Positions 31,508-62,956 of a DNA stretch of 64,000 bases are shown here, in pieces (position 1 is the first letter of the stretch; every line of letters starts with the position of its first letter). This DNA comes from Verrucomicrobiota bacterium. Its GTDB lineage: Bacteria > Verrucomicrobiota > Verrucomicrobiia > Limisphaerales > AAA164-E04. The notes under the pieces were generated by a model. The model saw only the letters and a list, made by a program, of their open reading frames with translations. It was not told where the DNA came from and did no database searches. The position numbers and the translations under genes are program-made. The DNA is taken from the NCBI GenBank assembly GCA_047947115.1, contig CP170459.1, forward strand, positions 2,432,001-2,496,000, read 5' to 3'.

Positions 31508-31530
31508 AAAGAGATGTCGCTGATTGCGCC

Positions 31531-31662
31531 ATCATCTTCATTATTGCCGGTAATCAATTTCGGCTTGCTTGTGCCGTGCATTTCAGAACGAAAATGGTAT
31601 TCGCTTTGAAATTCATGACTCATTCGGAATACGACAAAATGTCTTGGAAGAACGAACTATGA
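31531..31662 (+). pseudogene. higB: 3' remnant of higB toxin (copy in element C)
   Basis: Near-identical to 33550-33681 but lacks the 5' part and a start codon. Confidence 0.85.
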
Positions 31663-32054
31663 AAACTCAGACAACAACCAAGGTGCGAGCCCTTGATTCG
31701 GTTCCCAAGGATTATCCGAGTCTCTGTTCCGGATATCCCCCGCGCCCCATTCATGATGATCATGAATACGCTGAAGCCCAAAAAGCCATATTTGAATTGA
31801 TAGGCTTTGAAGAACAGTTTACTCCCGATCAATCCGACTATCTGGAGGCAGTCAGTACCTTCATTGAGCAATATGATCAACAAACGATAAGTTGGCCTCG
31901 GAGAAACCCGAAGTCCATCCTGAAGTATCTCATGGCTGAGCACGCTATGAGTGGCGCCGATCTGGCAAGATACCTTGGCATCAACGAATCGATGGGAGGA
32001 AAAATCTTGCGAGGGGAAAGAAATCTGACTGTTGAACACATCCGCTTTTCTTGA
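31659..32054 (+). pseudogene. higA: HigA antitoxin copy, C-terminally truncated
   Basis: Close paralog of 33678-34112 ending HIRFS* instead of HIRFLSSKFSVSPELFIA. Confidence 0.8.
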
Positions 32055-32193
32055 TGAAGAGTGAGACGTATTGAGAATGTGCAACAGTTGCTGCAGTGTG
32101 CGGTTTTGTGCGGCAAGCTGATAATTTGGCCGCTTTACTTGGATGATTTTTTGAGTGTTGAATAAAGTTGGTGAGTTAGGCCATTGTTGGATT

Positions 32194-32388
32194 GTGTCAA
32201 AAATAAGGTCATTCAGAATTTATTCAAGCTTGGCAGAGGAGAACCAAGCCGAGTATCGGCGTCGGTCCCGGATGTCTCCTCAAGAACGAATGAATGAATT
32301 TGCCGTTCTTCAAGAACGTGCCTGGGGGAATGATTGGAGGACCAAGCCAATGGACCGAATAGCAACTTGGGAAAAGGTGGATTGGTAG
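32194..32388 (+). CDS. Small hypothetical protein, putative partner of the downstream nucleotidyltransferase
   Basis: SSLAEENQAEY...MSPQERM; stop 3 nt before the next ATG; start uncertain (32155 or 32194). Confidence 0.55.
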   Translation: MSKIRSFRIYSSLAEENQAEYRRRSRMSPQERMNEFAVLQERAWGNDWRTKPMDRIATWEKVDW

Positions 32389-32391
32389 GGT

Positions 32392-32868
32392 ATGACCACG
32401 TTGACCGAAGATATGGTCGAGTTCTTGGGGTTGCTCAAAAAGCACGGTGTGGAGTTCGTTTTGGTGGGCGGTCATGCTGTGAATTATTATGGATACGTGC
32501 GGACAACTCAGGATATTGACCTACTCATTTACCCTTCTCCGAAAAATGCTCAGTGCATGATGGCTGCTCTAAGCGATTTTGGATTCGGAGACGCTGGAAT
32601 TCCGGTGTCACTTTTTGAATCGACAGGAAGTGCCATTCATCTGGGTAATGAACCCAACCGCATTGATTTACTGACAGCGCTGAAGGGGATGAGCAATGAG
32701 CAGATATTCAAAAACAAAAAGCGCATACACTTGGGTTCATTGGAACTGGATATTATCGATTTAAATGACCTGCTCCAGATTAAGCGGCAATCAAGCCCTC
32801 TCAAAGATCAGGCTGATGCAGAAGAGATTGAAATATCAAAACCTGATGGAGACTCATATGATAGATGA
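32392..32868 (+). CDS. Pol-beta-superfamily minimal nucleotidyltransferase
   Basis: VLVGGHAVNYYGYVRTTQDIDL (GG...DxD), RIDLL, K...KDQAD. Confidence 0.82.
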   Translation: MTTLTEDMVEFLGLLKKHGVEFVLVGGHAVNYYGYVRTTQDIDLLIYPSPKNAQCMMAALSDFGFGDAGIPVSLFESTGSAIHLGNEPNRIDLLTALKGMSNEQIFKNKKRIHLGSLELDIIDLNDLLQIKRQSSPLKDQADAEEIEISKPDGDSYDR

Positions 32869-33008
32869 TCCGATCGTTGCCGAAGATCGACAACATAGAG
32901 CAGTCATACTTAATGGATTTGATGGAGGGTGGTTAGATCTAACTTGTTTATGGGTACAGCCCGCCTCCGCTTAAAGCTCCGGCGAGGCAACTTTCGCGGT
33001 GAGAAAGT

Positions 33009-33034
33009 TGGTGGAGGCGTCGGGAGTTGAACCC
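33009..33034 (-). repeat. att site: copy of the tmRNA 3' end (25/26 identical)
   Basis: TGGTGGAGGCGtCGGGAGTTGAACCC versus 63055-63080. Confidence 0.9.
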
Positions 33035-33351
33035 TATAAGACCTTTCAAGACGAAGTATCCTTCCTTCGCATCCTTGCATGACTACAACACCTTACACGT
33101 TCATTCTCCAAAATCCACCATGCACCGTCTTGAACCATCATGAAAAAAATCTGTGCGGTTTTGTGCGGCAAATTTGGGAAGCTTTGGTTCAGATAGATCC
33201 AACCAACAGTTTTCGGTAAATTCTTATATGAGTGATCAAATGTTTGTTGGCGGGATCAAATCCATCTATTTGATTCGTCATTACTGATTCTCACTCGGGG
33301 AAGTCAAACATTGGCGAATTGGCGAATAGTCCAATATTGACTTTGAGATGA

Positions 33352-33681
33352 ATGCGGGACAAATTGTCCTTGTTGAGGATCATAACGGAAAAAGCACTCA
33401 AGGAATGGTCGTTGAAGCATGCCCGTGCGAAAGTATCTCTCGCAAACTGGGTTCGTGTCGTGAAACGCTCAAGTTGGAATACTTTGGTCGACATTCGTGC
33501 CACCTTTCCTTCAGCCGATCAGATATCTGTAGGCAGCGGACGGTCCGTCATCATCTTCAATATTGCCGGTAATCAATTTCGGCTTGTTTGTGCGGTGCAT
33601 TTTAGAACGAAAATGGTATTCGCTTTGAAATTTATGACACATTCAGAATACGACAAAATGTCTTGGAAGAACGAACTATGA
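33352..33681 (+). CDS. higB: Type II toxin HigB (RelE-like mRNA interferase)
   Basis: RIITEKALKEW...FPSAD...IFNIAGNQFRL...THSEYDK; real start may be TTG 33373. Confidence 0.92.
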   Translation: MRDKLSLLRIITEKALKEWSLKHARAKVSLANWVRVVKRSSWNTLVDIRATFPSADQISVGSGRSVIIFNIAGNQFRLVCAVHFRTKMVFALKFMTHSEYDKMSWKNEL

Positions 33682-34112
33682 AAACTCAGACAGCAACCAA
33701 GGTGCGAGCCTTTAATTCTGTTCCCAAGGATTATTCCTGCCTTTGTTCCGGATATCTTCCGCGTCCCATTCATGATGATCATGAATACGCTGAGGCCCAA
33801 AAAGCCATATTCGAATTGGTAGGTTTTGAAGAACAGTTAACTCCGGATCAAACTGACTATTTGGAGGCAGTTAGTACGTTCATTGAGCAATATGATCAGC
33901 AAACGGTAAGCTGGTCTAGGAGAAATCCGAAGTCCATCCTGAAGTATCTCATGGCAGAGCACGGTATGAGTGGTGCCGACCTGGCAAGATCTCTTGGCAT
34001 GAACGAATCGATGGGAGGCAAAATTTTGCGAGGGGAAAGAAATCTGACTGTTGAACACATTCGTTTTTTATCAAGCAAGTTTTCTGTTAGCCCTGAGCTC
34101 TTTATTGCCTGA
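33678..34112 (+). CDS. higA: Type II antitoxin HigA (HTH)
   Basis: ATGA overlap with higB; PRPIH...LKYLM...ILRGERNLT...F-x-V-SPELF. Confidence 0.92.
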   Translation: MKTQTATKVRAFNSVPKDYSCLCSGYLPRPIHDDHEYAEAQKAIFELVGFEEQLTPDQTDYLEAVSTFIEQYDQQTVSWSRRNPKSILKYLMAEHGMSGADLARSLGMNESMGGKILRGERNLTVEHIRFLSSKFSVSPELFIA

Positions 34113-34326
34113 GATCAGTTCTATTGAAAAAAGCTCCATAAACTTAAAATTGAGTAAGAATTCATCCGCTTTTCTTTATGATGAATGAGATAGATTGAGT
34201 ATGTGTAACAGTAGCAGGAGTGTGTGGTTTTTGTGCGGCAAGGTGAGTGATTTGATCTAACTCGTTGATGGATACAGCCCGCCTTCGCTTTAAGCTGCGG
34301 CGAGGCAAATTTCGCGGTGCGAAAGT

Positions 34327-34351
34327 TGGTGGAGGCGGCGGGAGTTGAACC
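34327..34351 (-). repeat. att site: exact 25-bp copy of the tmRNA 3' end
   Basis: TGGTGGAGGCGGCGGGAGTTGAACC identical to 63055-63079. Confidence 0.93.
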
Positions 34352-34850
34352 TGCTGCTTCGTGTTCGTTAACATTCGGGATGACGCACATTACTTTCTTT
34401 TTTACAACGTATTATGATTGTTTTCCTTAAAAGCCAGCACGAACCATTACGCAGTAAACGCGAAACATTTCGTGTCAAGTATTGTCAAGTGACCACCTTC
34501 GATGGATGATTATCGAATCTCCAAGAGTCGGTGTATTGCATCATCTTCACATACGAAAAGCAGCTTAATTTTTGTTGCGATGAATAAACAGGAACGACAG
34601 GATAGAAACGTTCCCCTGAATACGATGAGGGCAATAACAAAACAGAGGACCAGTAAGAGTCCGAAACCTCGGTTTTCAAAAACTTTATTTGATAGCATCA
34701 TCTTCCTTTTACTCGCACTAGCCTATGTTGTTGGAGCTTGATCAACGAGCTGAAATTGCCCCAATAATTCAGCCAGAGTTTGGGATTAATTCTCCCACTA
34801 CTCGACGGAATCGCCGAGATACTGTGCCTCTGAGCCGTTGGTTTTTAACC

Positions 34851-35900
34851 TTAATTTGTATTTTGAGGTACGACCCCAACGGCTCCTCCCCCAACACATC
34901 GCATGTCGCTCAAAGGACGAGTCGTTTGGTCGTGATAGTGCCGCACGCCGCGCTGCATCACCACTTGCACACGGCGATCCTTCGCGGTGGCTCGATAGAA
35001 GGCCGCGTTGAAGCCGACTCCCAAGGCGCTGAAAGCCCATTGCCCGGTTTCACCCGTGATGAAATCCCCCGTCACGCCGTGCTGGACGGGCCGCTGGCCG
35101 ACTTCAAACGAGAATGGCGGATTGCCATGGTAGTTGAAATCGACCGAGGTGCCCGGCCATGTCTCTTTGATATACCGTTCCAGCTCCGTTTCGAACGCAG
35201 CGCTGCTGTCATAGCGGAACTCCATTATCTTTTCCCAGTCCGCATCCCAACGCATCGCCCTGGGCATCTCATGACCGTGCTGCTCCTTGAACTTGGTCTG
35301 ACAATGATCGCACCAGCAACCATAAGGCGGCCCGAATCCTTGATCGACCATGTCGAGGTGAAAGCCGTTGATGCCATACGTCATCATCTCTTCTAGCAAA
35401 CCCTTCACGTAGCCGATGTAAGGCGAATTGAAACAGACGCGCTCGATGGGATTGCCCTCCTTGTCGCGCATGCGCCAGTCTGGATGCTCACGCAAGGTGT
35501 GTGTCGGATATTGCAAGACACAATAGGCGATCACCGGCATCTGATGTTTCTTCGCTTCCTCAACCGTTTCGCGCAGGACATCACGTTCACCCAAGCCAGG
35601 CGCCTTGGGCTGCAGTCTGGAGTCGTAGTACGTGTAGACGCCATCGCGAGCCCAGATGACCATGTAGTCGCAATGCGCGGCGGCGGCGCTCTCAATACAC
35701 TCGCGTCCGTTGAATCGGGCCACGTATCCCACGTCGGCCATGTCGCTGCCGAACTGCGCGCCAGTGGGCCCGGTTTCGATGCCGACCAAGGCGCGCTCGA
35801 ACCAGGGCGTCTTCTGAGCAGCTAGTGGTGTCATCACAACGCTGTGTAGTGCTAGAGCGAAGACGAAGAGTCGTTTGGTGGTCATCGGAAGGAATGGCAT
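34851..35900 (-). pseudogene. Secreted glycoside-hydrolase-like protein (GHL6/alpha-fucosidase-like TIM barrel), probably 3'-truncated
   Basis: Signal peptide, RDVLRETVE, HPDW, CFNSPY, GFHLDM, CWCDHCQ; breaks into unrelated AT-rich sequence after RPLSDMR (~34897). Confidence 0.65.
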
Positions 35901-35903
35901 TGA

Positions 35904-37940
35904 CTAAGGCTTTAAAAGCGCCCTTAAGGAGTCAAGATCGGAAACTTTTGATGAGGGATCGAATGCATAGGCGCGCTCCTCTTGCATCAACTCGGCATGC
36001 TTCTGTGCCAGGCGTTGGCGTAGCCCGGGATTTGCGGCAGCGACATAGACGGCGGCAACGTCGATGCGATCGTTGATCTGTAAGGCATCCGGTGCGAGCG
36101 TGAATTCGACCTCGTGAACACCATCGGCATCGACTCGGAAGACTTCCTCCGGTTTCGAAGGATAGCCAGGCAGTCGGAAGGTGAGCGCAGCTTGTCTTGG
36201 GGTGAATTCGAAGGTGTTGGTATCATTGTCAGGGCTGTAGGCGAGATCGTTGGCAAAGAAGAGTGCTCCTTCCTTGCCGGTGATCGACGAGAGATCCCAG
36301 TCGAGTTTGCCTTCGTTGAGGAGGCGCTTGTATTCATAGGCGTCGCCTTCAATGACGAGTGGTGCGATTGTCAGGGCAACGCCGTTTACTCGCGTGATCG
36401 GATCGATGAGATCGGGAAAATTCACCAAAGATTTGAGACTAAGATTGAACCAATAGATCGATGTGATGCGATTGGCGAGACCGTGATAAGCTTGAGCGGC
36501 CAGTTCATCGGGAGTGGGCGAAGCGCGCTCGCGGGAACGTGTTCGCCAGCCATCGTGAGCACCCTGCGCCCAGTAGGCGATGGGGCGCGGACGATTCAGA
36601 TCGCGCAGGCTCCGCGTCATGTCGCCAATGGTTTCCAGCGGCGCGCCCCATGAAATCGATGCGCCGCCCCAGCGATCGTAGCTCCGCCATGAATCCGCCG
36701 CCGGTGCCGTGACCCGATAAGCGTCGTAGTGAGGGTAGTCGGAAAGGCCCGCATAGTAGCGCCAAACGCGTTCTTCACTATGCGTGACCGTGGTCGCCAA
36801 ACGCGTCTTTTGATAGGGTTCGAAGGCTTTCCATACCTCCTGGGGCGGGACGGGTCTGCCACCACCATATTGAGGTTCGCCGAGGAATTCCACCGCGTGG
36901 ATCTGTGGGAGCATGGCATCAGCATCGTAGCGCTGGAAGTTTGCCAGACGATTGAAGCGTTTGATCGGATACTGCGCGTAGAGTTCCGCGTTGTCCGTGT
37001 AGCCACCCACTTCTTCGATCTGCCCGGTGTTGATGTGCATGCGCTTCAAGGTCTTCAGGTAGGGCAACATGGTTAGGGTATTCTTCCCGTCGATATCCGA
37101 AGCCACCCAGCCGCCGCTTAGATCAAAGGCTTCACGCTTGATGCGCAAATAGGCCCACAGGGAGAACGATGTCTCGTCTGCCCGCGCGCATTCGACTTCG
37201 ATCGCCGTGTAGGTGAGTGGCAATGGATCGGTCTTGGCGACAAAGCCTCCCTTGTCTCCCTTCGTGACGATTCCATTCTGCGGAAACAGATCCAGCGCAT
37301 TCAACCAAGGCTGGGGCAGGAGTGCGAGGAAGTCTGCCCCCTCCGCTGGCAGCCAAAACCGACAACGACGGATACTGATATCGGCTCCCGTGTGATTCGC
37401 TAGATGAACGAAGACTTTGTCAGGATGTATCGAATCACTGCTAGAGTCAAAAGTGACCGCCGAGAGCCACGCGTTCGCTGCGGTGAGATCGAGATCGACT
37501 GACGTTGTCTCAGGCCCGGTTCCGAGCGTGAGGCGATGCGATGAGCCTGCGGCCCACTTGCTTCCGCGGCTGTTGAATGACCAGACAGTCAGGGCGCCCG
37601 GCGGCACGCCACACGGCAGTCCATCCCGCGCGGAAGGGGTGTCATGCCAGGCCCATTCGCCGCTTTCCAGCAATTCACTTGGGCGTTCTTCATCAAACCG
37701 ATACTCCAGATCGGACGTGAGTTGCCAGGGCACTTCGCCGACATTCCTCAGGAAGATTTCCACCTTGGCCCCCATCTCCGGATCCGGAGCCCGGCGATAA
37801 CGCATGTTCGGAGACTGCACATGCGGGACGACGTTCAATCCAGCAAGGGTCACGGTTTCTCCGTGCAGAGACGAGTGGCCTGACAAATGCAGACTGATGA
37901 GATAGGCGAAAAGGAAAATCGGTGCGGAGGGCAACTTCAT
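35904..37940 (-). CDS. Secreted hypothetical protein, possibly glycoside-hydrolase-like
   Basis: ~680-aa ORF with signal peptide; GEPQY, DYPHYDAY, YWAQG motifs; 3 bp from the GH-like gene. Confidence 0.65.
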   Translation of the reverse strand: MKLPSAPIFLFAYLISLHLSGHSSLHGETVTLAGLNVVPHVQSPNMRYRRAPDPEMGAKVEIFLRNVGEVPWQLTSDLEYRFDEERPSELLESGEWAWHDTPSARDGLPCGVPPGALTVWSFNSRGSKWAAGSSHRLTLGTGPETTSVDLDLTAANAWLSAVTFDSSSDSIHPDKVFVHLANHTGADISIRRCRFWLPAEGADFLALLPQPWLNALDLFPQNGIVTKGDKGGFVAKTDPLPLTYTAIEVECARADETSFSLWAYLRIKREAFDLSGGWVASDIDGKNTLTMLPYLKTLKRMHINTGQIEEVGGYTDNAELYAQYPIKRFNRLANFQRYDADAMLPQIHAVEFLGEPQYGGGRPVPPQEVWKAFEPYQKTRLATTVTHSEERVWRYYAGLSDYPHYDAYRVTAPAADSWRSYDRWGGASISWGAPLETIGDMTRSLRDLNRPRPIAYWAQGAHDGWRTRSRERASPTPDELAAQAYHGLANRITSIYWFNLSLKSLVNFPDLIDPITRVNGVALTIAPLVIEGDAYEYKRLLNEGKLDWDLSSITGKEGALFFANDLAYSPDNDTNTFEFTPRQAALTFRLPGYPSKPEEVFRVDADGVHEVEFTLAPDALQINDRIDVAAVYVAAANPGLRQRLAQKHAELMQEERAYAFDPSSKVSDLDSLRALLKP

Positions 37941-38038
37941 GAAAATGCTGGTAGGAGTCTCAACGAACCGTCTAGGCAGTCTTGGAGCGTTTGGCAATAT
38001 GAAGAAGATCGGCGGCTGGCTGCAGGAAGGGCATTTGG

Positions 38039-38298
38039 CTAGCGGGATGTAAATCTTTGACGTTGTAAGATTGAGGTGGCGTTGGCCGGATCACGGGCCA
38101 TCGTTTCGATGGCCTGGGGGAGGCTGGGGTAGCCTGCGTGACCCAAAGGTGCCAGCAAGGCGCACCGGATCAGGGCCAACGCTCGCACGGCGTTGGGCGT
38201 TTACAGATGGCGATGAATTGTTGTGCGAAGGGAAACGCCACGGATTCCGCTTCGATCTCGCATAGGCTTAGATGGCGTTCTTTGATGCGGCCGTGGCC
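38039..38298 (-). pseudogene. ISAs1-family transposase relic with internal deletion
   Basis: Manual translation GHGRIKERHLSLCEIEAESVAFPFAQQFIAI, then in another frame NAVRALALIRCALL...LPQAIETMARDP...*. Confidence 0.55.
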
Positions 38299-38299
38299 G

Positions 38300-39619
38300 T
38301 CATGGGTTTCTCACTGTCCGCAGCGCCTTGATCTCGGCGGCGCCCCCCGCCACGCACAGGCTTTCGATGCGCAGTTCCTGCTCCGCGTTCCCGTCCAGGA
38401 CGGGCTCGATCTCCAGCACGTGGGGAACGCTCGCGTCGAGGTTGTCCACGATGGTCTTGTGGTAGTTCCAGTTGCCATTGAAGCGTGCGGAGGTCATGTC
38501 GTAGAGGTCCGTCGGTTCCTTCTGGCCATCCGGCATGTAGGTGTGCGGCTTGCCGTCGATGCGGATCCGGTACTTCCCGGAGTTCAGGGTGGCCTCGCCG
38601 AACACCATCACGAAGGAAGCCCGCACCTCGAAGCGGAGCGTGGCCGGGGTCTGGGGGACTGATTCCTCGTTTCCTTCCGCGTTCCTGACCCGCTTGCGAT
38701 TCGAGGCGATGAGCAGCCGGTCCAGCCAGCGCGACATCATCTGGTCGTGGCAGGCGCCCGTGAGGTGCGGCTTGCCTTGCGTCCACCCTGAGGGCAACGC
38801 GTCGGACGGAAGCAGGTCCGCGAGCACGGCGCGCCGGTTGGTCATGAAGAGGCTGTCGTGCAGCATCTTCTCCGGCACCGCGCACACGGCGTTTTCGCGC
38901 ACGCCCTTCTCGAAAGCGGCGAAGGCAGCGTCGGCAAAGAGTTGGTAGCCAGCGTCGCCGGGATGCACGCCGTCAGTGTCCCAGATGCGGTCTAGCGTGA
39001 TCTCCTTCTTGCGGACCCGTTCGATGACCAGCGCCGCGGCGTCGCCGGCGGGGACGCCGTAGGCAGCGGCGATTTTCAGGCGCTGCGTCAGGCCTCCGAG
39101 GTGCGCGGTCGTGCCGCTCTCCAGGCCCGTCTCGATCTCCCACTTGAAAGGAAACATCACCGCCACCACCGGCGCGTGGCCGTCGCCGATGATGCGCCGC
39201 AGGAGGGACTCGTACGACGCGAACACGAGGGGATTCCCGGCCCAGTTGTCGTCGTTCGCGCTGAAGTCCAGGAACACCAGATCCGGCTTGCGCGCCAGCA
39301 CGTCGCGCTCGAGGCGGAAGACGCCCAGCAAGGACGGGGTCCCGCCGATGGCGGCGTCATAGCACTGGAAGCGCGCCTTGGGATAGCGCGCCTCCAGCAG
39401 TTTCTTCGTTTGTGCGCGGTAGGAGGTCAACGCCTGGTCCGTGGCGTTGGCCCCCCACGTCAGCGAGGCTCCGAAGAAGACGACATTGAGGGATTCGCCC
39501 GCCCTGGCTCGTGCATCGAACCCGGCAAAGGAACCGCGCTGGGCTTCCGCCGCCAGGGCCGTTGACGCCGTGAGGACGGTTGCGGCTATTGCTGATAGGA
39601 CTCTCCGGGTTGTGCTCAT
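38300..39619 (-). CDS. Secreted SGNH/GDSL hydrolase (carbohydrate-esterase-like)
   Basis: Blocks FGASLT, AAIGG, DFSAND, DGVHP; signal peptide from ATG 39619. Confidence 0.85.
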   Translation of the reverse strand: MSTTRRVLSAIAATVLTASTALAAEAQRGSFAGFDARARAGESLNVVFFGASLTWGANATDQALTSYRAQTKKLLEARYPKARFQCYDAAIGGTPSLLGVFRLERDVLARKPDLVFLDFSANDDNWAGNPLVFASYESLLRRIIGDGHAPVVAVMFPFKWEIETGLESGTTAHLGGLTQRLKIAAAYGVPAGDAAALVIERVRKKEITLDRIWDTDGVHPGDAGYQLFADAAFAAFEKGVRENAVCAVPEKMLHDSLFMTNRRAVLADLLPSDALPSGWTQGKPHLTGACHDQMMSRWLDRLLIASNRKRVRNAEGNEESVPQTPATLRFEVRASFVMVFGEATLNSGKYRIRIDGKPHTYMPDGQKEPTDLYDMTSARFNGNWNYHKTIVDNLDASVPHVLEIEPVLDGNAEQELRIESLCVAGGAAEIKALRTVRNP

Positions 39620-39677
39620 TATGATTTGTTTTCGAATGTCACGGTTGGTGTTCGATTCTATTACTGCCACGCGTTGC

Positions 39678-41003
39678 CTACTTCGCAGGCACCTCGCCGC
39701 ATCGGTAAATTTTCGTGCTCAAGCTCATCGGCTGGGCGAAAGTGCCGGCTTTCAGTGTGAAGGTGATTCCCCCATACCAGTCGAACGCGCCGAGCGACTC
39801 GGGAATGGCGCATGTGAACTCGCCATTGTCTCCCGGAACGGCTTCGAGGCGGGCCCAGTGGCGGGCGTCCCAGCCGCACGGCTGGTCGGGAAGCCAGCTC
39901 ACATAGAACCAGCCCGCAGCACGGTCAGGGCAGTTCTTCACGGTGAACTTGAGCACCTTGCCGTCGCGCGGCACAGCCACGGCGTTCGGCTCGGGGAGGG
40001 GAGGACTGCCGCCCGCGAGCACGTGCGCGAAGAACGCAGGCTCGATCTCGGCGTTGATCGGGTAATCCCAGCGCACCGGCCCGCCCGGCAGCGACATGTA
40101 GTGGCTCTTGTTCGGACCGAAGCAGAGGTACTTGCCGGCAGGGATTGCGTCGAGCGTTGCCATCACCGACGGCGGCTTGAAGAAGATGTCGTTCGCGCTG
40201 CTGTACATCAGGTAGGTGGCACGACAGCGATTGAGTCTGGTGCCCGCGTCGAAGCATTTCAGCCAGGTGTTCCGATCCGCCTCGTCCATCTCCTTCAGCG
40301 CGCTGGAGCCAATCGCGTCGAGTTGATAGAATCCCGAGCCATACAGGTTAAAAGTGCCTTTTACGCGTTCGTCGAGGAGGCCGGAGAGCATGGTGACCAT
40401 GTAGCCGCCCCAACTGATGCCGGTCATGCAGAGCTTCTGCGGGTCCACGTCGGGCTGGGCTTCGAGGAGGTTGAACGCCCGCAGGCCCGCGGTGACCGCG
40501 TCGAAGAGCACGCAGACGTAGGGCGTGGGCTTGGGGGGGATGATCTGGTCGGCGCCGAACTGCATCTTGGTGACGCGGCTGATGCTGAGCATCTTGTCGT
40601 TGGCGCCGTAGCCGGGGAGGTCAGGGGCGATCGCCACGTAGCCGAGCTTCGCCCACGCGATGGGGCTGCCTTCACCGGCCATCCCGCCGCCACCGTGGCA
40701 CACGAGCATGCCGGGCAACTTCTGACCGGCAGTATTCTCAGGCCGGGCAATGATGGCATAGATCTCGCAATCCTTGACCTCGCCCTCCTTGCTGCCTTCG
40801 GCGCTGGCGAACCGCAACTTCGTCACCTTCACGCCGTCTGTGGTTTCCTCCGAGATCACCGTCGTGACCTTCGGCACGCCCGTCGCGTAGGGGGCGAAGA
40901 GGTCGTCCTTCTCCAGCGCCGGCGCCGGTGCGGCGGCCACACATTTCACGAGGAAAAAGAGAATCCCAACGGAAACTACTGCATCACGAATGGTTGTTCT
41001 CAT
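39678..41003 (-). CDS. Secreted alpha/beta-hydrolase (acetylxylan-esterase-like)
   Basis: CHGGGG, GISWGG nucleophile elbow, ANDIFF, KSHY; signal peptide. Confidence 0.85.
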   Translation of the reverse strand: MRTTIRDAVVSVGILFFLVKCVAAAPAPALEKDDLFAPYATGVPKVTTVISEETTDGVKVTKLRFASAEGSKEGEVKDCEIYAIIARPENTAGQKLPGMLVCHGGGGMAGEGSPIAWAKLGYVAIAPDLPGYGANDKMLSISRVTKMQFGADQIIPPKPTPYVCVLFDAVTAGLRAFNLLEAQPDVDPQKLCMTGISWGGYMVTMLSGLLDERVKGTFNLYGSGFYQLDAIGSSALKEMDEADRNTWLKCFDAGTRLNRCRATYLMYSSANDIFFKPPSVMATLDAIPAGKYLCFGPNKSHYMSLPGGPVRWDYPINAEIEPAFFAHVLAGGSPPLPEPNAVAVPRDGKVLKFTVKNCPDRAAGWFYVSWLPDQPCGWDARHWARLEAVPGDNGEFTCAIPESLGAFDWYGGITFTLKAGTFAQPMSLSTKIYRCGEVPAK

Positions 41004-41070
41004 GGTTGTTTGCTGCTAAGTACTGTCTCTAAACAATGTCGTGAAGAACACTCGAACAAGGTGTGGTGGC

Positions 41071-44000
41071 TCATTCCGTGAAAAGGATCTGGCCCCAGTT
41101 CTTCGGTTCCATCTTCAGCTCGAAGACTTCATCGTTCACCAGCCCGGTTGCCTGGTTGTTCCAGTAGGTGCGGAGGAGGGTATCGTCGCCGGCGGGCGTG
41201 CCGTGGGTGGCCCCGAAATCGCCGGAGAGCTTCATCCCTGCGAAAGGCTTCAGGCCAAGCGTGGAGAGGGGCACCCCGATCTCGACCACGCACCACCGAT
41301 CGCCCTTCTTTACCTCGATCTTCGCGTCCTGCAGCTCCACGACGCTGTCCATCACGTAATTGCTGACCACGCCGGAGCTGAAGGTCCTGGGGTTCTTCTG
41401 CTCGGCGATCTTGCGATACAGCACCGCCGTCGGCTTGCCCCGGAAATTTCCGATGGAGAGGCGGAGATCGCCCTTGGCCGCCTCGGCGCGGTTCTCATCG
41501 GCCTCGGGATCGGTGCCGAGCTGGAAATCCACCGTATCGCCCCGGGCGTACATGAATACCGGCGAGTCCGCACCGTTGGTCCACGGCGTCGCATCCGCCA
41601 CGCGCCAGCCGAGGTAAAGAAAGGTTTCGTCCCAGGCAATGGCCGATCGGACTTCGGCATCATCCTGTTTCTTGAAAACGATTTCCTTGCCAAAATCCTT
41701 CGCAAGATCGCCCGTGAAGACCGGCGTCTGCTTCCGGACCTCGCAGCGGCGCAGGCCGGCGCTGCGCTGCACCAGCTCGCTGCGAATCGCCTCGGCGAGC
41801 TTCAGGTCTTTCTCCTCGAGGCGGAGCGTGCCGGAGCCGAGCGGCTTGACGGTTTCGAGACCGACGACTTCGACATTCCAGTTCGCAGTCTTGCCGGCGG
41901 TCACGTAGAGCTTGCCGTCCTTGCCCTGGGTGATGCTGCCGCCGAAATCCTCGCCCCCTTCGCCGGACGGCACGTGATCGAGCACTGCCCCCGGCACTGC
42001 CCTTTCGGGCCATTGCACTTTCGAGAAGTCGCCCTGGAACAGGCGCGTCAGGTAGAACCCGTCGCGCGTGAGCATGTGCCACTCGCCGACGTTCGAGTTG
42101 ATCACCCACGCGCTGCCGACGGGATCGGGCAACGTGACGCTGCCCACGGTGCCGAAGGCCCCGCGGATGAGGCCGGCCTGCGGCCCCGGTGCGTTGTGCG
42201 AGCCGTGCACGCCATGGAACGTGTTCGGATAGCTCCACCGCAGCTTGCCGGAGGCCACGTCGTAGCAGTTGAAGAGCTGCTTCTCGGAGTCGCACGATAG
42301 CACGAGGTCGTTAGCTGGCGACGGCATCGGCCCTTCGAGAGGAGGCAGGAAGTGCAGGTTCGTGGTGTCCCACTTCGGGGCGCCGGAGGGAGTGAAGCCG
42401 GCCAGCCTGATGCGGGCGCCACGGTCCCACCGGTTGGCCTTCGGGTCGAGCACGCCCGCGTAGAGCGTGAGGTCGGTGTTCAGCCCCAACGACCAGTTGA
42501 GGTAGCCATTGAACGACATCAGCATCGGCACCACGGTCTTCTCCCCGTCCTGCTTCTGCTGGTCGCCGTTCTCATCGGACCAGAACACGGTGGTCTTGTC
42601 CTTGTCGTTGCGGCCGAAGGTCGCCCGGAGGGCGTAGGCGCCGTCGCCGAGGCGTTCCCAGACGTGCGTGTCGGTGCCGAGCGTGGCCGCGAGGTAGAGC
42701 TTGCCATTCGTGCCGCGGCAGAAGCGGGCGAAGTTGTGGAACAGGCTGTTCCAGTCCCGGCCCTCTCCGTTCTCAAAGGTGCCGAGGCATTGGGCAAGCC
42801 CGGTGGCGGGATCGAGCCGCCATTCGCAGGCTTCGCCGACCATCAGGTTCGGATCGTCCGGGTTGATCGCTCCGCCGCTGGCACCATAGTGAGTGGAGCC
42901 GAAGAACTCGCGGACGAACGTGCCGGTCTGGTTGTTCCACACGCTGAACCGTTTTGGGAAGAAACCGGCTTCAGCCACCCACAGGTTTCCTTCACGGTCA
43001 ACTGCCAGTCCGTGGATGTTGATCATACCCTCCTTGACCCAGGGCCCGGTGCGAGGCCTGCCGCCCTGCTTCCCGATCGCCAGGGCAGGCTTGCCGTCGG
43101 GCGTAAACACCTTGATCTGCGCGCTCGGCTCGCCTTCGCCCACATAGATTCGACCGCCAGCATCGACCGCAAGGCACTTGGCGTCGATCAGTCGGGTCAG
43201 CACCGGCTTTACCGCGCCGGTTGCGGGGTCCACGGCGGCCACCGAATCGGTGCCGGAAAGGACGTAGAGGAGCGAGTCGCTCACCGCGGCGATGCCGCTG
43301 GGCGCGGGCACGGGGATGGTCTTGAGCACTTTGCCGTTCTCTGCGTCGAGTACGGCGACGAAATCGCTTTTCATAACGGCAACTTCCTGCGGGAAGGAAG
43401 CCTCGATCTTGCGGCGCACCGCGGCCTGCAGCTTCAGCGAAGCCATTTCGGCCCCGCCGTCGACGAGCGTCTTGTCGTTGAGCATGCCGTTGATGGTCCC
43501 GGCAACGGCGTCGCGGACGTCCGGCGTGTAGTAGTTGGGCGCAGCGAGCGCCTTGTCTTCCGGCTCGGTGCCAGCCAGCCAGGCTGCGGCACGCTCGCGG
43601 ACGTTCTTGTCGACCTTCTCCCAGATCGCCTTGCCGATACCGTCGCCCGCGGCGGAGAGCTTGGTGAGGAACGCGCGCCAATTGGTTACATCGCTCCTGC
43701 GGAAATTGTAGGAGCGGAAGGTGAGGTAGAGTTTGCCGTTGCGGGCCGCCATCGCCTCAGCCTTGTCGGGCATGCCGGGCTGGTCCTTCCAGAGATCCTT
43801 CACGAAGAGATCTCTGAATCCGCCATCGTTTGCGTCGTCCCAGTTCTGATAGGAGCCGGTGGCAGTGTCGAGGCGGAAGAGCACCTGCGGGCTGCCGGAG
43901 CTGTTGCCGACATAGACGAGGTCGCCCTCAACTGCCAGCAGTTCGGCGCCGCCGAAGCCGCCGTATTTGTGTTTCCAGCGGACGTTGCCGTCGAGGTCGC

Positions 44001-45201
44001 AGGCGAGCAGGCCGCGGCCGGCCTCGGCGGCTCCCCAGCCAAGGTAAACGGAATCGCCTTGTGCGGCACTGGTCCAGGGCACGCCGAGGTCGCCGCCCCA
44101 GTTCGAGGTGGGGCCGCTGTGCCAGGGTGCGTTGCCGCTGTTGCCCGCCCAGCCTCGCAGGCGCAGGCCGATGCCCGTGTGCCAGATGGCCTGCCAGGTG
44201 TAGTCGCCGGCGGGCAGCACCGCGCCGGGCGTGCGCCAGATCGGCGTGGCCAGGCCGTCCCACGTCACCGTGTGCTCGCCCTTGGCCATCGGCTCGGCAT
44301 TGAGGAGATTCCGCACCACGACGCCGTCGGCGTTGCGGAGGAGCATCGATACGTAGCCGTCCTCGGGCATGGTGAACTTGATCGGCTTGAAGCCCTTCGG
44401 CCCCTCGCTGAGGGCTGACCAGTCAACCACCGGCTGACCTTGCTGCAGCGACACCGGCAACTTGCGGCCGTCGGCCAGGTGCAGCATCCGGGGCTTCATC
44501 TTCCCGGAGCGCTCGAAGGTCGCCGGGCCGAACTGGTCGAGCTTGCGCGTGCCCCAATAGGTACGTTCCGGCACCACTCCGGGCATGAAACAGTCCCATG
44601 CATGCAGACTCCAGCCAAACGGGAGGACGAACATCACTCTAATCTCGCTGCCGGGTCCGAGGGTGACACCTTCGCTTGTAATCATCTTCAGGGGAATCCG
44701 GATCTCCTGCGTATAGCCTTTGCCGTCCGGGTTGTTGAGAAACACCTGCTCCGCGCCCATCTGCTTCGGGTCACGCGCGCTCTGAAGAGGTGGCTCGAAA
44801 TTGAGCGTGATCGATTCCTTCCCGTCCAGGTCGCGCCCGCAGGTCAGGTTGGGCTGAAGCTGCTGCGGTGTGCCGGGCGCCGTGAGCATGTGCATCCGCA
44901 GCGTGCTGCCGGCGGGGCGTCGGTCGTTATGACGGAAGCTGCCTGTGACGCGCGCAAGCACGTAGAGATTATCCTGGTCGTACATCGCATGAAGCCACGC
45001 GCTGTGGCGGTCACGCTGCTCCTCCACGTTCTCGCAGGCGAAGATGCCACCGGTGAGGTCCCAGTCGTCGAATCTGCCGTCGATGACGACCTTGCCCGGC
45101 GCCGGCAACACGGAAATGCCGTAGTTCTCGGTTTGCGTGCCCGCAAATGCGGGCATCGCAAGCAGGCCGCAGACGGTGAGGAGGTTGAAAATAGTTTTCA
45201 T
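41071..45201 (-). CDS. Large secreted protein: CBM9/DOMON-like, FlgD-Ig, beta-propeller, CBM9/DOMON-like
   Basis: VIDGRFDDWD, GVVVRNLL...GEHTVTWDG...GDYTW, NHL-like AVDAGGRIYV/IKVFTPDG repeats; paralog of 55136-59266. Confidence 0.8.
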   Translation of the reverse strand: MKTIFNLLTVCGLLAMPAFAGTQTENYGISVLPAPGKVVIDGRFDDWDLTGGIFACENVEEQRDRHSAWLHAMYDQDNLYVLARVTGSFRHNDRRPAGSTLRMHMLTAPGTPQQLQPNLTCGRDLDGKESITLNFEPPLQSARDPKQMGAEQVFLNNPDGKGYTQEIRIPLKMITSEGVTLGPGSEIRVMFVLPFGWSLHAWDCFMPGVVPERTYWGTRKLDQFGPATFERSGKMKPRMLHLADGRKLPVSLQQGQPVVDWSALSEGPKGFKPIKFTMPEDGYVSMLLRNADGVVVRNLLNAEPMAKGEHTVTWDGLATPIWRTPGAVLPAGDYTWQAIWHTGIGLRLRGWAGNSGNAPWHSGPTSNWGGDLGVPWTSAAQGDSVYLGWGAAEAGRGLLACDLDGNVRWKHKYGGFGGAELLAVEGDLVYVGNSSGSPQVLFRLDTATGSYQNWDDANDGGFRDLFVKDLWKDQPGMPDKAEAMAARNGKLYLTFRSYNFRRSDVTNWRAFLTKLSAAGDGIGKAIWEKVDKNVRERAAAWLAGTEPEDKALAAPNYYTPDVRDAVAGTINGMLNDKTLVDGGAEMASLKLQAAVRRKIEASFPQEVAVMKSDFVAVLDAENGKVLKTIPVPAPSGIAAVSDSLLYVLSGTDSVAAVDPATGAVKPVLTRLIDAKCLAVDAGGRIYVGEGEPSAQIKVFTPDGKPALAIGKQGGRPRTGPWVKEGMINIHGLAVDREGNLWVAEAGFFPKRFSVWNNQTGTFVREFFGSTHYGASGGAINPDDPNLMVGEACEWRLDPATGLAQCLGTFENGEGRDWNSLFHNFARFCRGTNGKLYLAATLGTDTHVWERLGDGAYALRATFGRNDKDKTTVFWSDENGDQQKQDGEKTVVPMLMSFNGYLNWSLGLNTDLTLYAGVLDPKANRWDRGARIRLAGFTPSGAPKWDTTNLHFLPPLEGPMPSPANDLVLSCDSEKQLFNCYDVASGKLRWSYPNTFHGVHGSHNAPGPQAGLIRGAFGTVGSVTLPDPVGSAWVINSNVGEWHMLTRDGFYLTRLFQGDFSKVQWPERAVPGAVLDHVPSGEGGEDFGGSITQGKDGKLYVTAGKTANWNVEVVGLETVKPLGSGTLRLEEKDLKLAEAIRSELVQRSAGLRRCEVRKQTPVFTGDLAKDFGKEIVFKKQDDAEVRSAIAWDETFLYLGWRVADATPWTNGADSPVFMYARGDTVDFQLGTDPEADENRAEAAKGDLRLSIGNFRGKPTAVLYRKIAEQKNPRTFSSGVVSNYVMDSVVELQDAKIEVKKGDRWCVVEIGVPLSTLGLKPFAGMKLSGDFGATHGTPAGDDTLLRTYWNNQATGLVNDEVFELKMEPKNWGQILFTE

Positions 45202-45224
45202 AGAAGGTCTCACTGAGTTATGAA

Positions 45225-47180
45225 TTATTGAGGCTTCACCGAGGATCCAAAATCGGGTGTGCTCTCAAGCAAGGCTTCGGTTAGTTGATAGCAGACCACG
45301 GTATCCAACCCGCGAATGTAGAGCCTGCCGTTGGCAAGGGTTGGCTGTTGGGTGTGATGGATTTCCAACCCGTGGCGCACCCGGCCGAGTTCCTTGTAGC
45401 CCGCCTTGTTCGCTTCCGCCATCACAAGCTCACCGGCTTTGGTCAGGCCGAAGATCAACCCGTCGGCGATGATGAGTTGCTGTTTTGTGTCCCAGTCCCG
45501 GCGCTCGAATTGCTCCCACATCAGTTCGCCGGTCGCGAGGTCGGCGCATTGCAGCCGAAACGAACCAAATCCATAAACGGCACCGTCATGAATGGCCGGC
45601 GTATTGAACCAATTCACCTGGACCCTGGAACTCTGATACAAGATGTCTGCCAAATACTGTCCCTCACGCTTCTTGAGCTCAATACACATGGAGAATCTGT
45701 TTTCTCCGCTGCACAGAAACACCCGATTGGATACCGCCACCGCCGAAGCCATCAACCCGTGGCCCATCACGCGGGGGATCGTCCACAGTATGGAACCGTC
45801 CTTTACGCTGACGCCTATGATCTCTTCGTTGCCCAGACCGTAAATCAACTGCCCCTCACCGTCGAGTTCAAGATAGGTCGGCGACGCGCCGGCATACGGC
45901 GCACCGCCATGCTTGGGCTGCCGTTCTTTTCCGGTCCACAGGACTTTTCCGGAAACCTTATCCAACGCCATCAGAATGTCCTTCTCGATTTGCGGCAGGA
46001 CAAAAAGGGTTCCGCCGATCACGAGCGGCGTCGAAAATCCGTTCACAAAGGGGATGTCTCCACCACTGCGCCACAGTTCCTTGCCATCGCTTACCCGAAG
46101 ACAGACCAACGGGCAGATCTCATTGGGGCCTTTTTGATCAGGCTTACCTCCCTCCCTACTGACTCGCTGATAGGGGATGTAGTACACGCGGTCTTCATCA
46201 ACCAGCGGCGAGGCGACGGTTCCCCACCAGTGAGCCGGCAGCATGTATTCGGGCGCGAGTTCCGTCTTCCAGATGATTCTCCCGGTTTTCGCGTCCACGC
46301 AGTACGCCCACTGTTTGCCGTCGAGTTGCCCCGTTGCAAATGCCCGGCCGCCTGATTCCACGGTCACGCCGATGGAGGGTCCGGTTTTCAGCCGCCAAAG
46401 ATCTTTGGGGCCGTCTTTAGGCCAGGTTCGCAGTAACCCAGCCGCGTTGAACACCGTATTCCCGTCAACGGGAATGAACCGATTCAGATCGGTATTGCGC
46501 GCCTCGATCGTTCTCGTAAAAGTTACCTTCAAGGGCGGAAGGGCATCCCACGCCTGCTCGGCCGTCAGCGTGTCGGTCGAAATGGTTATCTCCTGACCCT
46601 GCTCACAGGATTTCGTTCCTTCTTTTCCGTCCAGGACATACGAAACGAGCATGATTTTCCCCGCCCCGCTGCTTGGATCCCCCGCCCCGTGGTCCGAAGC
46701 CACAATTGTCATTTTGTTGTTGGCGATCGCTGCATTGCACGGTTCGGTTACGTCCACCCATCCCTCTCGTTTACCGTATATGGCGAACTTGATCCCCAAT
46801 CCCGTGGCCGGCAATGGCTTGCTCGCGCCTAGAACCGCAACTCCTTTCACCCAATCCGCGCCCGGGGTAGCAACCCCCAATTCATCACCGGCAATCGCCG
46901 ACAGCTCGATCGTTTGCTGCGTGCCGTCCAGAACATATTCCACCACAATTTTATCATTCCCGGCATCCACGCCCAAAAACGCGCTGGTCGCGACAATCAC
47001 CAACCGGTTATCCTTGACCCTGGCCGCCAGCACCTTGGTGACATCCACTTTCCCGGCCAGAGCCTTGGTAATCGTCAAGCCCGCGGTCGGAATGGCAGCC
47101 CGCTCCTCCGCCATGGCCGTCGATGCCACGAGACATATCACGGCCATCGTTGAGAGAATTCCTCGTGTTGCGTTAGTCAT
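45225..47180 (-). CDS. Secreted PQQ-like (BamB-type) beta-propeller with two N-terminal lectin-like repeats
   Basis: DAKTGRIIW, ASPLVD, SDGKELW, RLYIRG; repeated VDVT...D...YVLDG module. Confidence 0.8.
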   Translation of the reverse strand: MTNATRGILSTMAVICLVASTAMAEERAAIPTAGLTITKALAGKVDVTKVLAARVKDNRLVIVATSAFLGVDAGNDKIVVEYVLDGTQQTIELSAIAGDELGVATPGADWVKGVAVLGASKPLPATGLGIKFAIYGKREGWVDVTEPCNAAIANNKMTIVASDHGAGDPSSGAGKIMLVSYVLDGKEGTKSCEQGQEITISTDTLTAEQAWDALPPLKVTFTRTIEARNTDLNRFIPVDGNTVFNAAGLLRTWPKDGPKDLWRLKTGPSIGVTVESGGRAFATGQLDGKQWAYCVDAKTGRIIWKTELAPEYMLPAHWWGTVASPLVDEDRVYYIPYQRVSREGGKPDQKGPNEICPLVCLRVSDGKELWRSGGDIPFVNGFSTPLVIGGTLFVLPQIEKDILMALDKVSGKVLWTGKERQPKHGGAPYAGASPTYLELDGEGQLIYGLGNEEIIGVSVKDGSILWTIPRVMGHGLMASAVAVSNRVFLCSGENRFSMCIELKKREGQYLADILYQSSRVQVNWFNTPAIHDGAVYGFGSFRLQCADLATGELMWEQFERRDWDTKQQLIIADGLIFGLTKAGELVMAEANKAGYKELGRVRHGLEIHHTQQPTLANGRLYIRGLDTVVCYQLTEALLESTPDFGSSVKPQ

Positions 47181-47190
47181 TGTCTGTTTT

Positions 47191-47218
47191 GGTTCGTGGT
47201 TCTGGGTTCTTGGTTCTG
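47191..47218. repeat. Degenerate heptamer tandem repeat (GGTTCKK x4)
   Basis: GGTTCGT GGTTCTG GGTTCTT GGTTCTG in the intergenic spacer. Confidence 0.75.
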
Positions 47219-47221
47219 GGC

Positions 47222-48421
47222 TCAATAGTCCGCCACCGAACCATCCGGATTCTTCTGGCCGGGCCATTTGAACTTCGTCGGATCAATCTTCGCGAGCGCC
47301 GCTTCATCGACCTCGACGCCCAGCCCCGGTCCCTGTGGCAGCGAGGAGTCGCCATTCTTGTCCACCTCCCAACTTTTCTTGAGTGTGCCGCCGCAGTCAT
47401 TGGAGTAGTATTCGTGAATGAGAAACAGCGGGATGGACGCCGCGACATGAAAGCTCGCCGCAATGCCTATGAACGACGCAATCGAATGAGGAGCGAGCGG
47501 CACCGTGTAAGTCTCCGCCAGCACTGCCACCTTCTTCATCTGCGTGATGCCGCCGCCATGCGCGCAATCGTGCTGGATGATGTCGATACAGCGCTCCTGC
47601 AAATACGGGATCACCTCCCAGATCGTCCGGTCACGCTCGCCCGAAGCCAGCGGCACATTGACGGACTGCTTGATGCGCTTGAACACTTCGATGTTTCCCG
47701 GCACCGCCGGTTCCTCGATCCACAACACGTCGTAAGGCTCGATGGCATTGGCGAACTGGATCAACATCGGCGGCGGCAGACAACAATGCGCGTCAAACAT
47801 CACCGTGCCGTCCTTGCCCACCCGTTCCCGCGCTTCCTTGACCGCCTTCACCAGCGGCTCGATGTCGGCGGGATTGCCGGACGCAGGACGCGGTCCACCG
47901 GCGGGGACCTTGTAAGCCTTGGGCGTGGGATAAACGCGGATTCTGTCGCGTGTCGGGCCACCCATCAGTCGATAAACCGGCACGCCATGCAGTTTGCCGG
48001 TGATGTCCCACAGCGCCATGTCGATGCCCGCAATCGTGTGCAGCATGAAGGCGCCGCCACGATAATCCCGGTGCGCGCGATACAATTTCTGCCAGAGATG
48101 CTCGATGCGCGTTGGGTTCTCGCCGTCGAGCAGTTCAAACATTGACTGCATGAGCGGCCCCGCGACCGTCGGCGGCAATTGCGAAATCTCGCCCCAACCG
48201 AAGATCTGTTGGTTGGTTTCGATTTTCAAAAGCGTCTTGCTGCCGACAGGGTAGGTCTTGAAGCCGGTGATCTTGATCGACGACGCACGGTCGCCAACAT
48301 CAGCCGCAGGGTTGTCGGCCGCTGACACTTCGTTCAGCAGCAGCATACCGGCCGCAGTCGCACCGGCCGATGCGAGCAGATCGCGGCGGCTGATGCCCTG
48401 GCGTTTGGGTTGTGAGGTCAT
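47222..48421 (-). CDS. Mandelate racemase/enolase-superfamily acid-sugar dehydratase (galactonate-dehydratase-like) with Tat signal
   Basis: SRRDLL, GWGE, AGIDMALWDITGK, metal ligands in FDAH/WIEEP/SGER, APH, PGLG. Confidence 0.9.
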   Translation of the reverse strand: MTSQPKRQGISRRDLLASAGATAAGMLLLNEVSAADNPAADVGDRASSIKITGFKTYPVGSKTLLKIETNQQIFGWGEISQLPPTVAGPLMQSMFELLDGENPTRIEHLWQKLYRAHRDYRGGAFMLHTIAGIDMALWDITGKLHGVPVYRLMGGPTRDRIRVYPTPKAYKVPAGGPRPASGNPADIEPLVKAVKEARERVGKDGTVMFDAHCCLPPPMLIQFANAIEPYDVLWIEEPAVPGNIEVFKRIKQSVNVPLASGERDRTIWEVIPYLQERCIDIIQHDCAHGGGITQMKKVAVLAETYTVPLAPHSIASFIGIAASFHVAASIPLFLIHEYYSNDCGGTLKKSWEVDKNGDSSLPQGPGLGVEVDEAALAKIDPTKFKWPGQKNPDGSVADY

Positions 48422-48456
48422 GTTCTTAGTTCTTAGTTCTTAGTTCTTAGTTCTTG
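48422..48456. repeat. Heptamer tandem repeat (GTTCTTA x4 + GTTCTTG)
   Basis: Directly abuts the dehydratase start codon. Confidence 0.9.
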
Positions 48457-48502
48457 GTCAGATGGAGAGTTTTTTGAGTTGGGTCTGGCGGGCGCGGCGC
48501 GA

Positions 48503-49603: not shown

Positions 49604-49756
49604 GTTCTTGGTTCTTTGGATTGCGTGTGCGCTTGGCCAAGCGCCTCCACTTCTTCGCGGTCTGCGAACTGCACATCGGCCCCTGTCGCGAATACAAGCA
49701 GTTGCCGCGCGAGGAAAAGACAGCAGGACGATGAGAAGCCTGAGGCTGGGTTTCAT
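49600..49756 (-). pseudogene. Collapsed relic of a DUF1592-family gene
   Basis: Signal-peptide start MKPSLRLLIVLLS joined out of frame to DUF1585-like FLARQLLVFATGADVQFADREEVE. Confidence 0.5.
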
Positions 49757-49777
49757 GGCGGTGGATAAATGTGGGTA

Positions 49778-51028: not shown

Positions 51029-51065
51029 CTTTCTGATTTCAGTTTTTTAATTCACCTTGCGTGGA

Positions 51066-52442: not shown

Positions 52443-52451
52443 AAGTTCGTG

Positions 52452-54881: not shown

Positions 54882-55024
54882 AGGAAAGCAGACTAGGGTT
54901 TGTGAGCGCGGCGCGCCGGAACGGCTGAGCTGGTGTCTGGGTTGCTGCCGAGCAGCTCGGGGAGGCCATGATAGCATATGAATGAGCAGTGTGGAACGTG
55001 CGGCGCGAAGCCGCGAGTGAACAT

Positions 55025-55052
55025 GCGGCTGATGCCCTGCCGTTTGGGTTGT
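55025..55052. repeat. 28-bp direct repeat (27/28) of 48386-48413
   Basis: GCGGCTGATGCCCTG(C/G)CGTTTGGGTTGT; both encode QPKRQGISR on the minus strand. Confidence 0.8.
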
Positions 55053-55135
55053 TCGTTCATCATTCCTGTGACTCATGGGTGAAGAATGGTTGGTTCCATG
55101 GGCAAGGTTAATGGGTGGAGTGCACTCGGTGATCG

Positions 55136-59266: not shown

Positions 59267-59305
59267 TTCTTTTACTTTCGGTTCATGTTGCAATGTCTTT
59301 CCCGC

Positions 59306-61446: not shown

Positions 61447-61743
61447 CTTTATAAGTGATTGGTCGCACTAGCGGAAAAGTGGCCCAGGAAAACGCATCAT
61501 GTCGCCCGCGGAGCCGGAATGGCGAAAACTTACAGGCCTCGATATATCTTAATCTTCGACCTGTTGGGCGATCTCGTGTGCTCGCGATCCGAGCCTCGCG
61601 AACGCGAGACGAAGTCAGTCATTGCCAGCGGCGCGCCAGAGCGCTATCACCGCCGAAATTCACCAACTACCGTTTCGCCATGCGCCAGCTCACTTGCCTG
61701 CCTTTTGTCCTGGTGGTCTTGTTGAAGATTCGGAATTGCCAGT

Positions 61744-62949: not shown

Positions 62950-62956
62950 TAGGTGA

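Follow-up and report, generated by a model that had tools for sequence, protein, structure and literature searches.

The window analysed here is a stretch of 64,000 nucleotides (G000:C1:2432001-2496000) within a 6.08-Mb genome assembled as a single contig, and DNA nearly identical to it was found in metagenomes of seawater, marsh, estuary, and lagoon; all positions below are those of the window unless a contig is named. The tmRNA gene ssrA (63055..63413, reverse strand) is the target of an array of islands in which, reading away from ssrA, the 28.7-kb island C (34352..63054, reverse strand) is followed by a minimal unit, B, measuring 1318 nt from core to core, and by a remnant, A (31527..33008, no strand assigned). 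The terminal 25-26 nt of the tmRNA gene recur at 34327-34351 (att1) and 33009-33034 (att2) and have no other copy in the genome. Independent metagenome contigs span both junctions, A-B and (at att1, in runs X3 and X14) B-C, which means that the layout did not arise from misassembly.

The original prediction had read B (33009-34351) from its letters as an att core, arm repeats, higBA, arm repeats, and a second att core, and this order was confirmed. At the junction with A lies att2 (33009..33034, reverse strand), a 26-nt distal copy of the tmRNA 3' end with one mismatch, followed by a distal spacer (33035..33151, reverse strand) that sets the core-to-arm distance at about 118 nt, the same spacing as in island C, and by a direct pair of arm-type repeats (33152..33168, reverse strand) that read CCGCACA twice on the tmRNA strand. 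On the other side of the genes, an interior segment (34141..34220, reverse strand) that is conserved in A, in a sibling unit B', and in a related unit of genome G466 occupies the place where autonomous relatives begin their integrase. Beyond it are the proximal arm-type pair (34221..34238, reverse strand; one copy mismatched, 88 nt from the core), a hairpin-rich segment beside the core (34271..34326, reverse strand) with related sequence 3' of ssrA or tRNA ends in several relatives, and att1 (34327..34351, reverse strand), the perfect 25-nt proximal copy at the junction with C. The mismatch predicted for the distal att is present and is agreed on by contigs of independent runs, which cross att2 with 0-1 other differing letters, so it is not a sequencing error. 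Hairpin-rich segments directly follow the att core at both 34271-34326 and 32955-33008, and related hairpins follow ssrA in many relatives (loci L003, L005, L006, L011, and L013), sometimes with a small ORF behind them that we take to resemble a GIY-YIG nuclease.

The only genes recognised in B are higB (33373..33681, forward strand), which by homology encodes a 102-aa RelE-family mRNA interferase and for which alignment places the start at TTG 33373, and higA (33678..34112, forward strand), which encodes a 144-aa antitoxin with a C-terminal HTH and whose start overlaps the higB stop. HigB scored 83.6 bits against PF09907 (E 1.2e-23) and aligned with the solved HigB chains PDB 5ycl/5ifg/6kml at E about 2e-10 and about 30% identity; HigA matched HTH_3 (PF01381), and the NCBIfam HigA model scored under its cut-off. 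The predicted promoter and operator (33337..33369, forward strand) consist of a -35 box (33337-33342) and a palindrome (33357-33369) just 5' of the start codon, and similar elements precede three distant homologs (L004, L014, and L061). Six RNA runs had 0.23-0.29 of the window's words in common, which is no evidence of expression. That B contains no trace of an integrase, as had been predicted, was borne out by a profile of 20 same-family integrase rows, which was silent in B and returned 57 bits for the control stretch, the N-terminus in island C; the same profile detected no integrase remnant in B', A, or the G466 unit.

Island C carries its own tyrosine integrase (61744-62949) with intact catalytic motifs, together with TTGACA-type arm pairs (34473-34489 and 62979-62996) that differ from the arms of B and that, lying at att0 and att1, bound C alone. 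Its cargo is GC-rich (about 60-67% vs 51% for the genome) and includes two paralogous, secreted-looking proteins of 1380 aa (41071-45213 and 55136-59293), with DNA about 69% identical over long stretches, as well as glycoside-hydrolase-like and ECF sigma-like genes. At the far side of the array, a tRNA-Arg(CCG) gene (27816-27892) stands opposite the tmRNA gene with a variable interval of 35 kb between them, and an IS3-family element (28762-30285) lies inside an uncharacterised gene. This element is 99.8% identical to a copy at G000:C1:3754120 and is skipped in all four of the metagenome runs compared, so its insertion is recent.

Remnant A had been taken for a diverged sibling with the same layout as B; it proved instead to be decayed and fused, lacking a distal arm and att. 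It comprises a truncated higBA (31527-32049; 91% to B) in which higB is missing its 5' part and higA is cut at its 3' part by a microhomology deletion, a single arm pair (32097-32113), a small ORF with a DUF2204 nucleotidyltransferase gene (32155-32868) that are extra relative to B, and a proximal end (32929-33008). Left of the arm pair, A is 83% identical to the proximal interior of B; right of it, A is 92% identical to the distal interior of B' and 86% to a remnant in genome G189. These alignments make A likely a fusion, at the arm repeat, of two units of the family. The small ORF and DUF2204 gene are probably a TA-like pair and recur at the distal end of the family (32155-32868; L055; L083); the small protein had no Pfam match.

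A scan of metagenomes for the hairpin-plus-att junction of B returned 25 loci, three of which (L066, L075, and L083) hold the sibling B'; since these are >99% identical to one another, B' represents one haplotype. Its host is a congeneric species with a flank 84% identical to that of G000. B' is 1408-1410 nt from att to att and has both arm pairs, a perfect att, and no integrase; it is identical to B at 152/186 nt of the proximal end and 134/137 nt of the distal end, and its cargo consists of DUF433 and DUF5615 (PIN-like) genes plus part of the nucleotidyltransferase pair seen in A, namely the small ORF and a stub. It lies directly at ssrA, between ssrA and an intact integrase island, E, and this position ahead of E is that of the newest arrival. 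The genome G466 is 99.97% identical to the B' locus over 2972 nt of ssrA flank, with ssrA joined straight to E at the att core on one MAG contig that ends 29 nt beyond the core; B' is present or absent exactly at att in near-clonal chromosomes. The same genome carries a higBA unit about 3 kb from tRNA-Arg that has both arms and no att and is 96% identical to B, with 10 of 744 coding nt of higBA differing against a background of 84-86% and with HigA 98.6% identical at the amino acid level. A distal end at 97-98% and a near-identical higBA vs that background of 84-86% point to exchange across species.

B-type ends were found in 3 of 22 genomes of the family, all of one genus (3 of its 8 genomes), and no integrase-bearing copy of them was found among the metagenome loci, the 22 family genomes, or an order-wide scan of 401 genomes. 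The original prediction was to fall if homologs of B always lay in larger, integrase-bearing islands, and this is not what the survey returned. The proximal interiors of B and B' are both free of integrase and are 17% diverged. A K-x-x-F-x-K-like stretch, which both B' and the G466 unit have past their proximal arm, was considered as an integrase remnant and rejected as not significant. Three of the five family members (A and the units in G189 and G466) are immobile remnants. The suggestion that B moves in its reduced form, for which the neighbour A had been cited, gains nothing from A; its support comes from B', which combines shared ends, a different TA pair, and att-precise presence or absence, and B accordingly belongs to a non-autonomous family that apparently moves in this form.

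The 6.08-Mb genome holds five matches to the pattern TGTG(C/T)GG-N3-4-TGTGCGG: one at each end of B, one in A, and one at each end of a tRNA-Tyr integrase island. The latter (L016, G000:C1:341637-355704, 14 kb) duplicates the whole tRNA, has CCGCACA arms at both ends, and also contains a second, N-terminally truncated integrase and three near-identical copies of a transposase-like ORF. Elsewhere, the CCGCACA-arm motif occurs at the ends of integrase islands at tRNA-Tyr, -Val, -Asn, and -Pro. The exact pair pattern was found in 44 of 201 genomes of the order, where a reversed control gave about 39 matches vs 69 real ones, so many single arm-pair matches are due to chance; about half of the 30 arm-pair loci that were read lie beside tRNA ends or in repeat clusters, and in four of the five islands fetched whole, the integrase begins just past the proximal arm pair. 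The integrases of CCGCACA-arm islands form a group with the tRNA-Tyr ones that excludes the C and E integrases (support 93/92, not starred); this clade changes tRNA targets at 52-79% identity. Judged by sequence, the arm repeats of B are predicted to be arm-type sites of a real integrase clade.

No intact helper integrase with matching arms was found. C and E have intact integrases with the same core target, and their arm motifs differ from those of B. The original prediction had proposed looking for the cognate integrase elsewhere, and the only arm-matched integrase of this genome, that of the tRNA-Tyr island, looks inactive: it has no in-frame ATG/GTG/TTG before the arm-binding domain, where four relatives have one, and carries Ser at the first catalytic Arg, a position that is Arg in 17 other rows. 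These two defects make it probably inactive, and it was rejected as a helper within the genome despite its shared arm motif. In G479, an ssrA island with CCGCAC-type arms (L097) has a frameshifted integrase. A GTDB scan for the arm with an ssrA att gave 17 loci, of which this island is the one real case and most others are ssrA with a chance heptamer; an order-wide scan for an ssrA att followed by CCGCACA hit 6 of 401 genomes, and among the four of five non-self loci that were read, only the one identical to that of G479 had an integrase. Two arm-pair matches occurred in viral contigs, neither with further similarity.

Population data were drawn from seven metagenome runs of five studies, compared as contigs only, which drop rare forms. 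B is polymorphic and is missing from the major haplotype in X3, where depth was about 5 for B, about 5-9 for B with the left part of C, and 22-27 for A; these depths are no share of cells, and they suggest that A is fixed in the X3 population. The junctions seen comprise A-B, B-C, A'-att-D (X3 and X13), and probably B-att-D (X4), D being a foreign element that joins the array at att2 (33034) in X3 and X13 and at att1 (34351) in X4 and that was found neither in the window nor in five genomes of the genus. The A allele beside att2 and D in X3 and X13 differs at several letters, so a swap of haplotypes, and not an excision, may explain why B is missing there. A loose end at 34327 in X2 resembles the proximal end of island E. 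A joint from 33171 to 32142 (X1 and X8) was considered as a circle or third element and rejected, as its 25 linker letters match B'. In the contigs of the seven runs, which drop rare forms, no circle or B-only excision joint was seen.

We consider it probable (roughly 0.6) that B, which belongs to a small family with differing TA pairs, is a unit that excises and integrates at the tmRNA gene with a borrowed tyrosine integrase. B encodes no enzyme for this, and its sibling combines the same ends with another TA pair, so movement likely relies on the integrase of another island. Recombination between att1 and att2 would free a circle of 1318 nt, the presumed attP intermediate, in the order arm, 118 nt, core, 88 nt, arm. 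Crossover in the T-loop is one class of integrase target position, and homology among the att copies starts 2-3 nt before the T-loop, which would fit a crossover there. The att2 mismatch sits 3' of the T-loop, in A's half of the site, where it would be left behind, so the predicted attP core of B, and thus of the circle, would be perfect. A T-stem category of crossover is described in the part of PMC4383910 available. The family may descend from an island with a CCGCACA-arm integrase that lost this gene once, before the siblings diverged. The helper might be an ssrA integrase with matching arms that arrives on a visiting island, or the integrase of a neighbour such as C or E, with which the core is held in common and not the arms; B may at present be stranded in this genome. 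TA pairs can provide addiction or phage defence, both plausible for the pairs of B and B', and the pair may help B to persist. A point against the borrowed-integrase reading is that island E may have inserted at the distal att of B or have been exchanged by homologous recombination.

Three other readings were weighed. The arm repeats might be chance or regulatory sequence and B a mere spacer between att copies that acquired a TA operon, as the frequent reversed-control matches in the 201-genome scan would allow; this is very improbable and already largely refuted, since all five matches in the genome lie at island ends, the core-to-arm spacing equals that of island C, and B' and the G466 unit retain the repeats at either end despite their changed cargo. 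We also find it unlikely, if still worth serious consideration, that B is a CIME-type remnant that lost its integrase in place and moves only with a neighbour or in recombined blocks of the array. B does lie distal to the autonomous island C, the CIME order according to the portion of PMC5704250 available, its low X3 depth resembles that of C's left part, the haplotype that lacks B has a different A allele, no helper was found, and no circle was seen in the contigs of seven runs; moreover, a related higBA (43%/39% aa identity) is cargo inside an 11-kb CCGCACA integrase island (L061). Against this reading, B' lies proximal to its integrase island and is absent alone, at att, from a near-clonal chromosome, the siblings share an integrase-free proximal interior though 17% diverged there, and the arm pairs of C enclose only C. 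Nor are these ends bound to a single neighbour, since B is found next to C and probably next to D, and B' next to E.

The original prediction had further proposed that B, with its higBA, may guard the array. On this reading, a cell that lost the neighbouring islands would lose the antitoxin with them and die. B would indeed go with an excision running from ssrA to att2, higBA is intact with its promoter and operator conserved, and TA pairs are said to stabilise composite islands in the part of PMC8978831 available. We regard this role as improbable, however, because arms that match the C integrase lie at att0 and att1, and the product expected from them would not include B; because the neighbours change independently, with C apparently replaced and B kept, joined to D, in X4; and because B is absent from the major haplotype of X3. 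Remnant A, moreover, is without an outer att, and its truncated HigA retains most of the protein and might neutralise HigB.

A second family of integrase-free units was found in a sister genus (G468, G470, and G474), where tandem units share the tmRNA-end core and have another conserved pair of ends. Its arrays (G474:C1 5580601-5603354, 6608727-6626643, and 3935334-3945051, L141 and L143-L145; G470:C94, L140; G468:C478 and C129, L139 and L146) occupy several chromosomal places, some far from ssrA, and the distal arm gave 19 matches in three of five genomes tested. Across 13 att-to-att units and one open stretch, of 1.1-15 kb, none of 75 ORFs matched an integrase family, and the cargo includes TIR, Shedu, AbiEii, Pua-like, and methyltransferase domains, with a relaxase in one unit. 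A candidate autonomous parent lies at G468:C452 (L120), where an intact 416-aa tyrosine integrase directly follows ssrA, preceded by TTTGCCAA-like repeats that resemble the family's arms. The integrases fetched from G474 had no second-family att or paired-arm match beside them, save a weak arm-like one at tRNA-Val, and among 301 sampled genomes of the order the ends gave nothing beyond hairpin-only matches. We tentatively raise the idea, to which we give less than even odds, that B is the founding case of minimal tDNA-island satellites, its ends of about 400 nt acting as a reusable, TA-swapping vehicle that crosses species with the integrases of visiting islands, with the sister genus holding a scaled-up version. 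If this were true, the sister-genus units would form integron-like arrays of defence cassettes, overlooked by island finders that rely on an integrase.

When an island at a tRNA or tmRNA gene has no integrase, it is usually taken as dead or dragged in cis, and tools for which an integrase is mandatory discard it. The B family offers comparative evidence that some of them come and go singly and swap cargo between species, and B itself provides a 1.3-kb substrate with defined ends for work on trans-mobilisation and on the arm-vs-core specificity of island integrases, and lets one ask whether a TA pair alone sustains a selfish element.

Among known systems, the comparison of B to a MITE made in the original prediction does not suit it. 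MITEs have terminal inverted repeats and a target-site duplication made by a transposase, are non-coding, and occur in many dispersed copies. The ends of B are direct copies of the tmRNA 3' end and direct arm repeats, with no terminal inverted repeat among the repeats listed, and it carries two intact genes and has copies only in the ssrA array, a single locus. An integron cassette was likewise rejected, as B is bounded by copies of the tmRNA end and TIGR02249, with its cut-off of 265 bits, gave 39 bits for the nearest integrase. As a toxin-antitoxin locus, B resembles type II HigB-HigA systems in its toxin-first operon, with the gene for a RelE-type HigB (PF09907) 5' of the HTH antitoxin gene, and in its palindromic promoter operator; it departs from the usual ones in that the pair, whose activity is predicted from homology, is the entire cargo of an att-bounded unit.

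In its target signature, a tDNA with a displaced fragment at its bounds, B matches the islands of Islander and the Pseudomonas tmRNA islands I23/I44/I55 (10.1101/2024.08.29.610337), as far as the available parts of these reports describe them, and C and E are islands of this kind. Those islands encode their own integrase, which B does not, and Islander (PMC4383910), in the portion available, rejects tDNA candidates without an integrase, so B-like elements would not be catalogued there. In their available sections, 10.1101/2024.08.29.610337 and 10.64898/2026.01.13.699239 concern cell-to-cell transfer and not integration.

CIMEs, described in the available part of PMC5704250 (citing Pavlovic et al. 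2004) as elements that have lost integration and transfer genes, kept their att sites, and are moved in cis, come closer. B has no integration or transfer genes, retains predicted attL and attR sites, and is part of a tandem stack at a target gene's 3' end, next to an autonomous island. It fits the CIME definition only in part, because CIMEs are described as decayed in place and distal to the newcomer, which is true of B relative to C and false of B', which is proximal to E and is gained or lost alone, and because the siblings of B exchange cargo across species. The 15 ssrA islands of Dehalococcoides without an integration module, read by their authors as possible CIMEs (McMurdie et al. 2011, PMC3146451, in the portion available), are similarly in tandem at ssrA and bounded by 3'-end copies, but involve a serine recombinase and large rdhA cargo, where B has tyrosine-integrase arms, a length of 1.3-1.4 kb in its family, and TA-only cargo. 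The E. coli microcin H47 island, whose excision and integration were demonstrated to depend on trans-supplied functions and termed a "parasitic strategy" in the available part of Azpiroz et al. (2011, PMC3191183), resembles B in being small, att-flanked, and without a recombinase gene; as described there, it is a 13-kb island with long imperfect repeats and a helper in the host background, is not part of a tmRNA array with arm pairs, and is not limited to a TA pair. A literature search that was thin on subscription journals, with supplements outside its scope, found no TA-only, att-bounded tmRNA element. The general arrangement is thus already published, and B contributes a clean minimal case of it instead of a new principle: it is likely a TA-only variant, moved in trans, of the integrase-less, att-bounded islands represented by CIMEs, the Dehalococcoides ssrA islands, and the H47 island, and what distinguishes its family is the minimal TA-only cargo, the swapping of that cargo between species, and the fact that B', upstream of an integrase island, is gained or lost exactly at the att.
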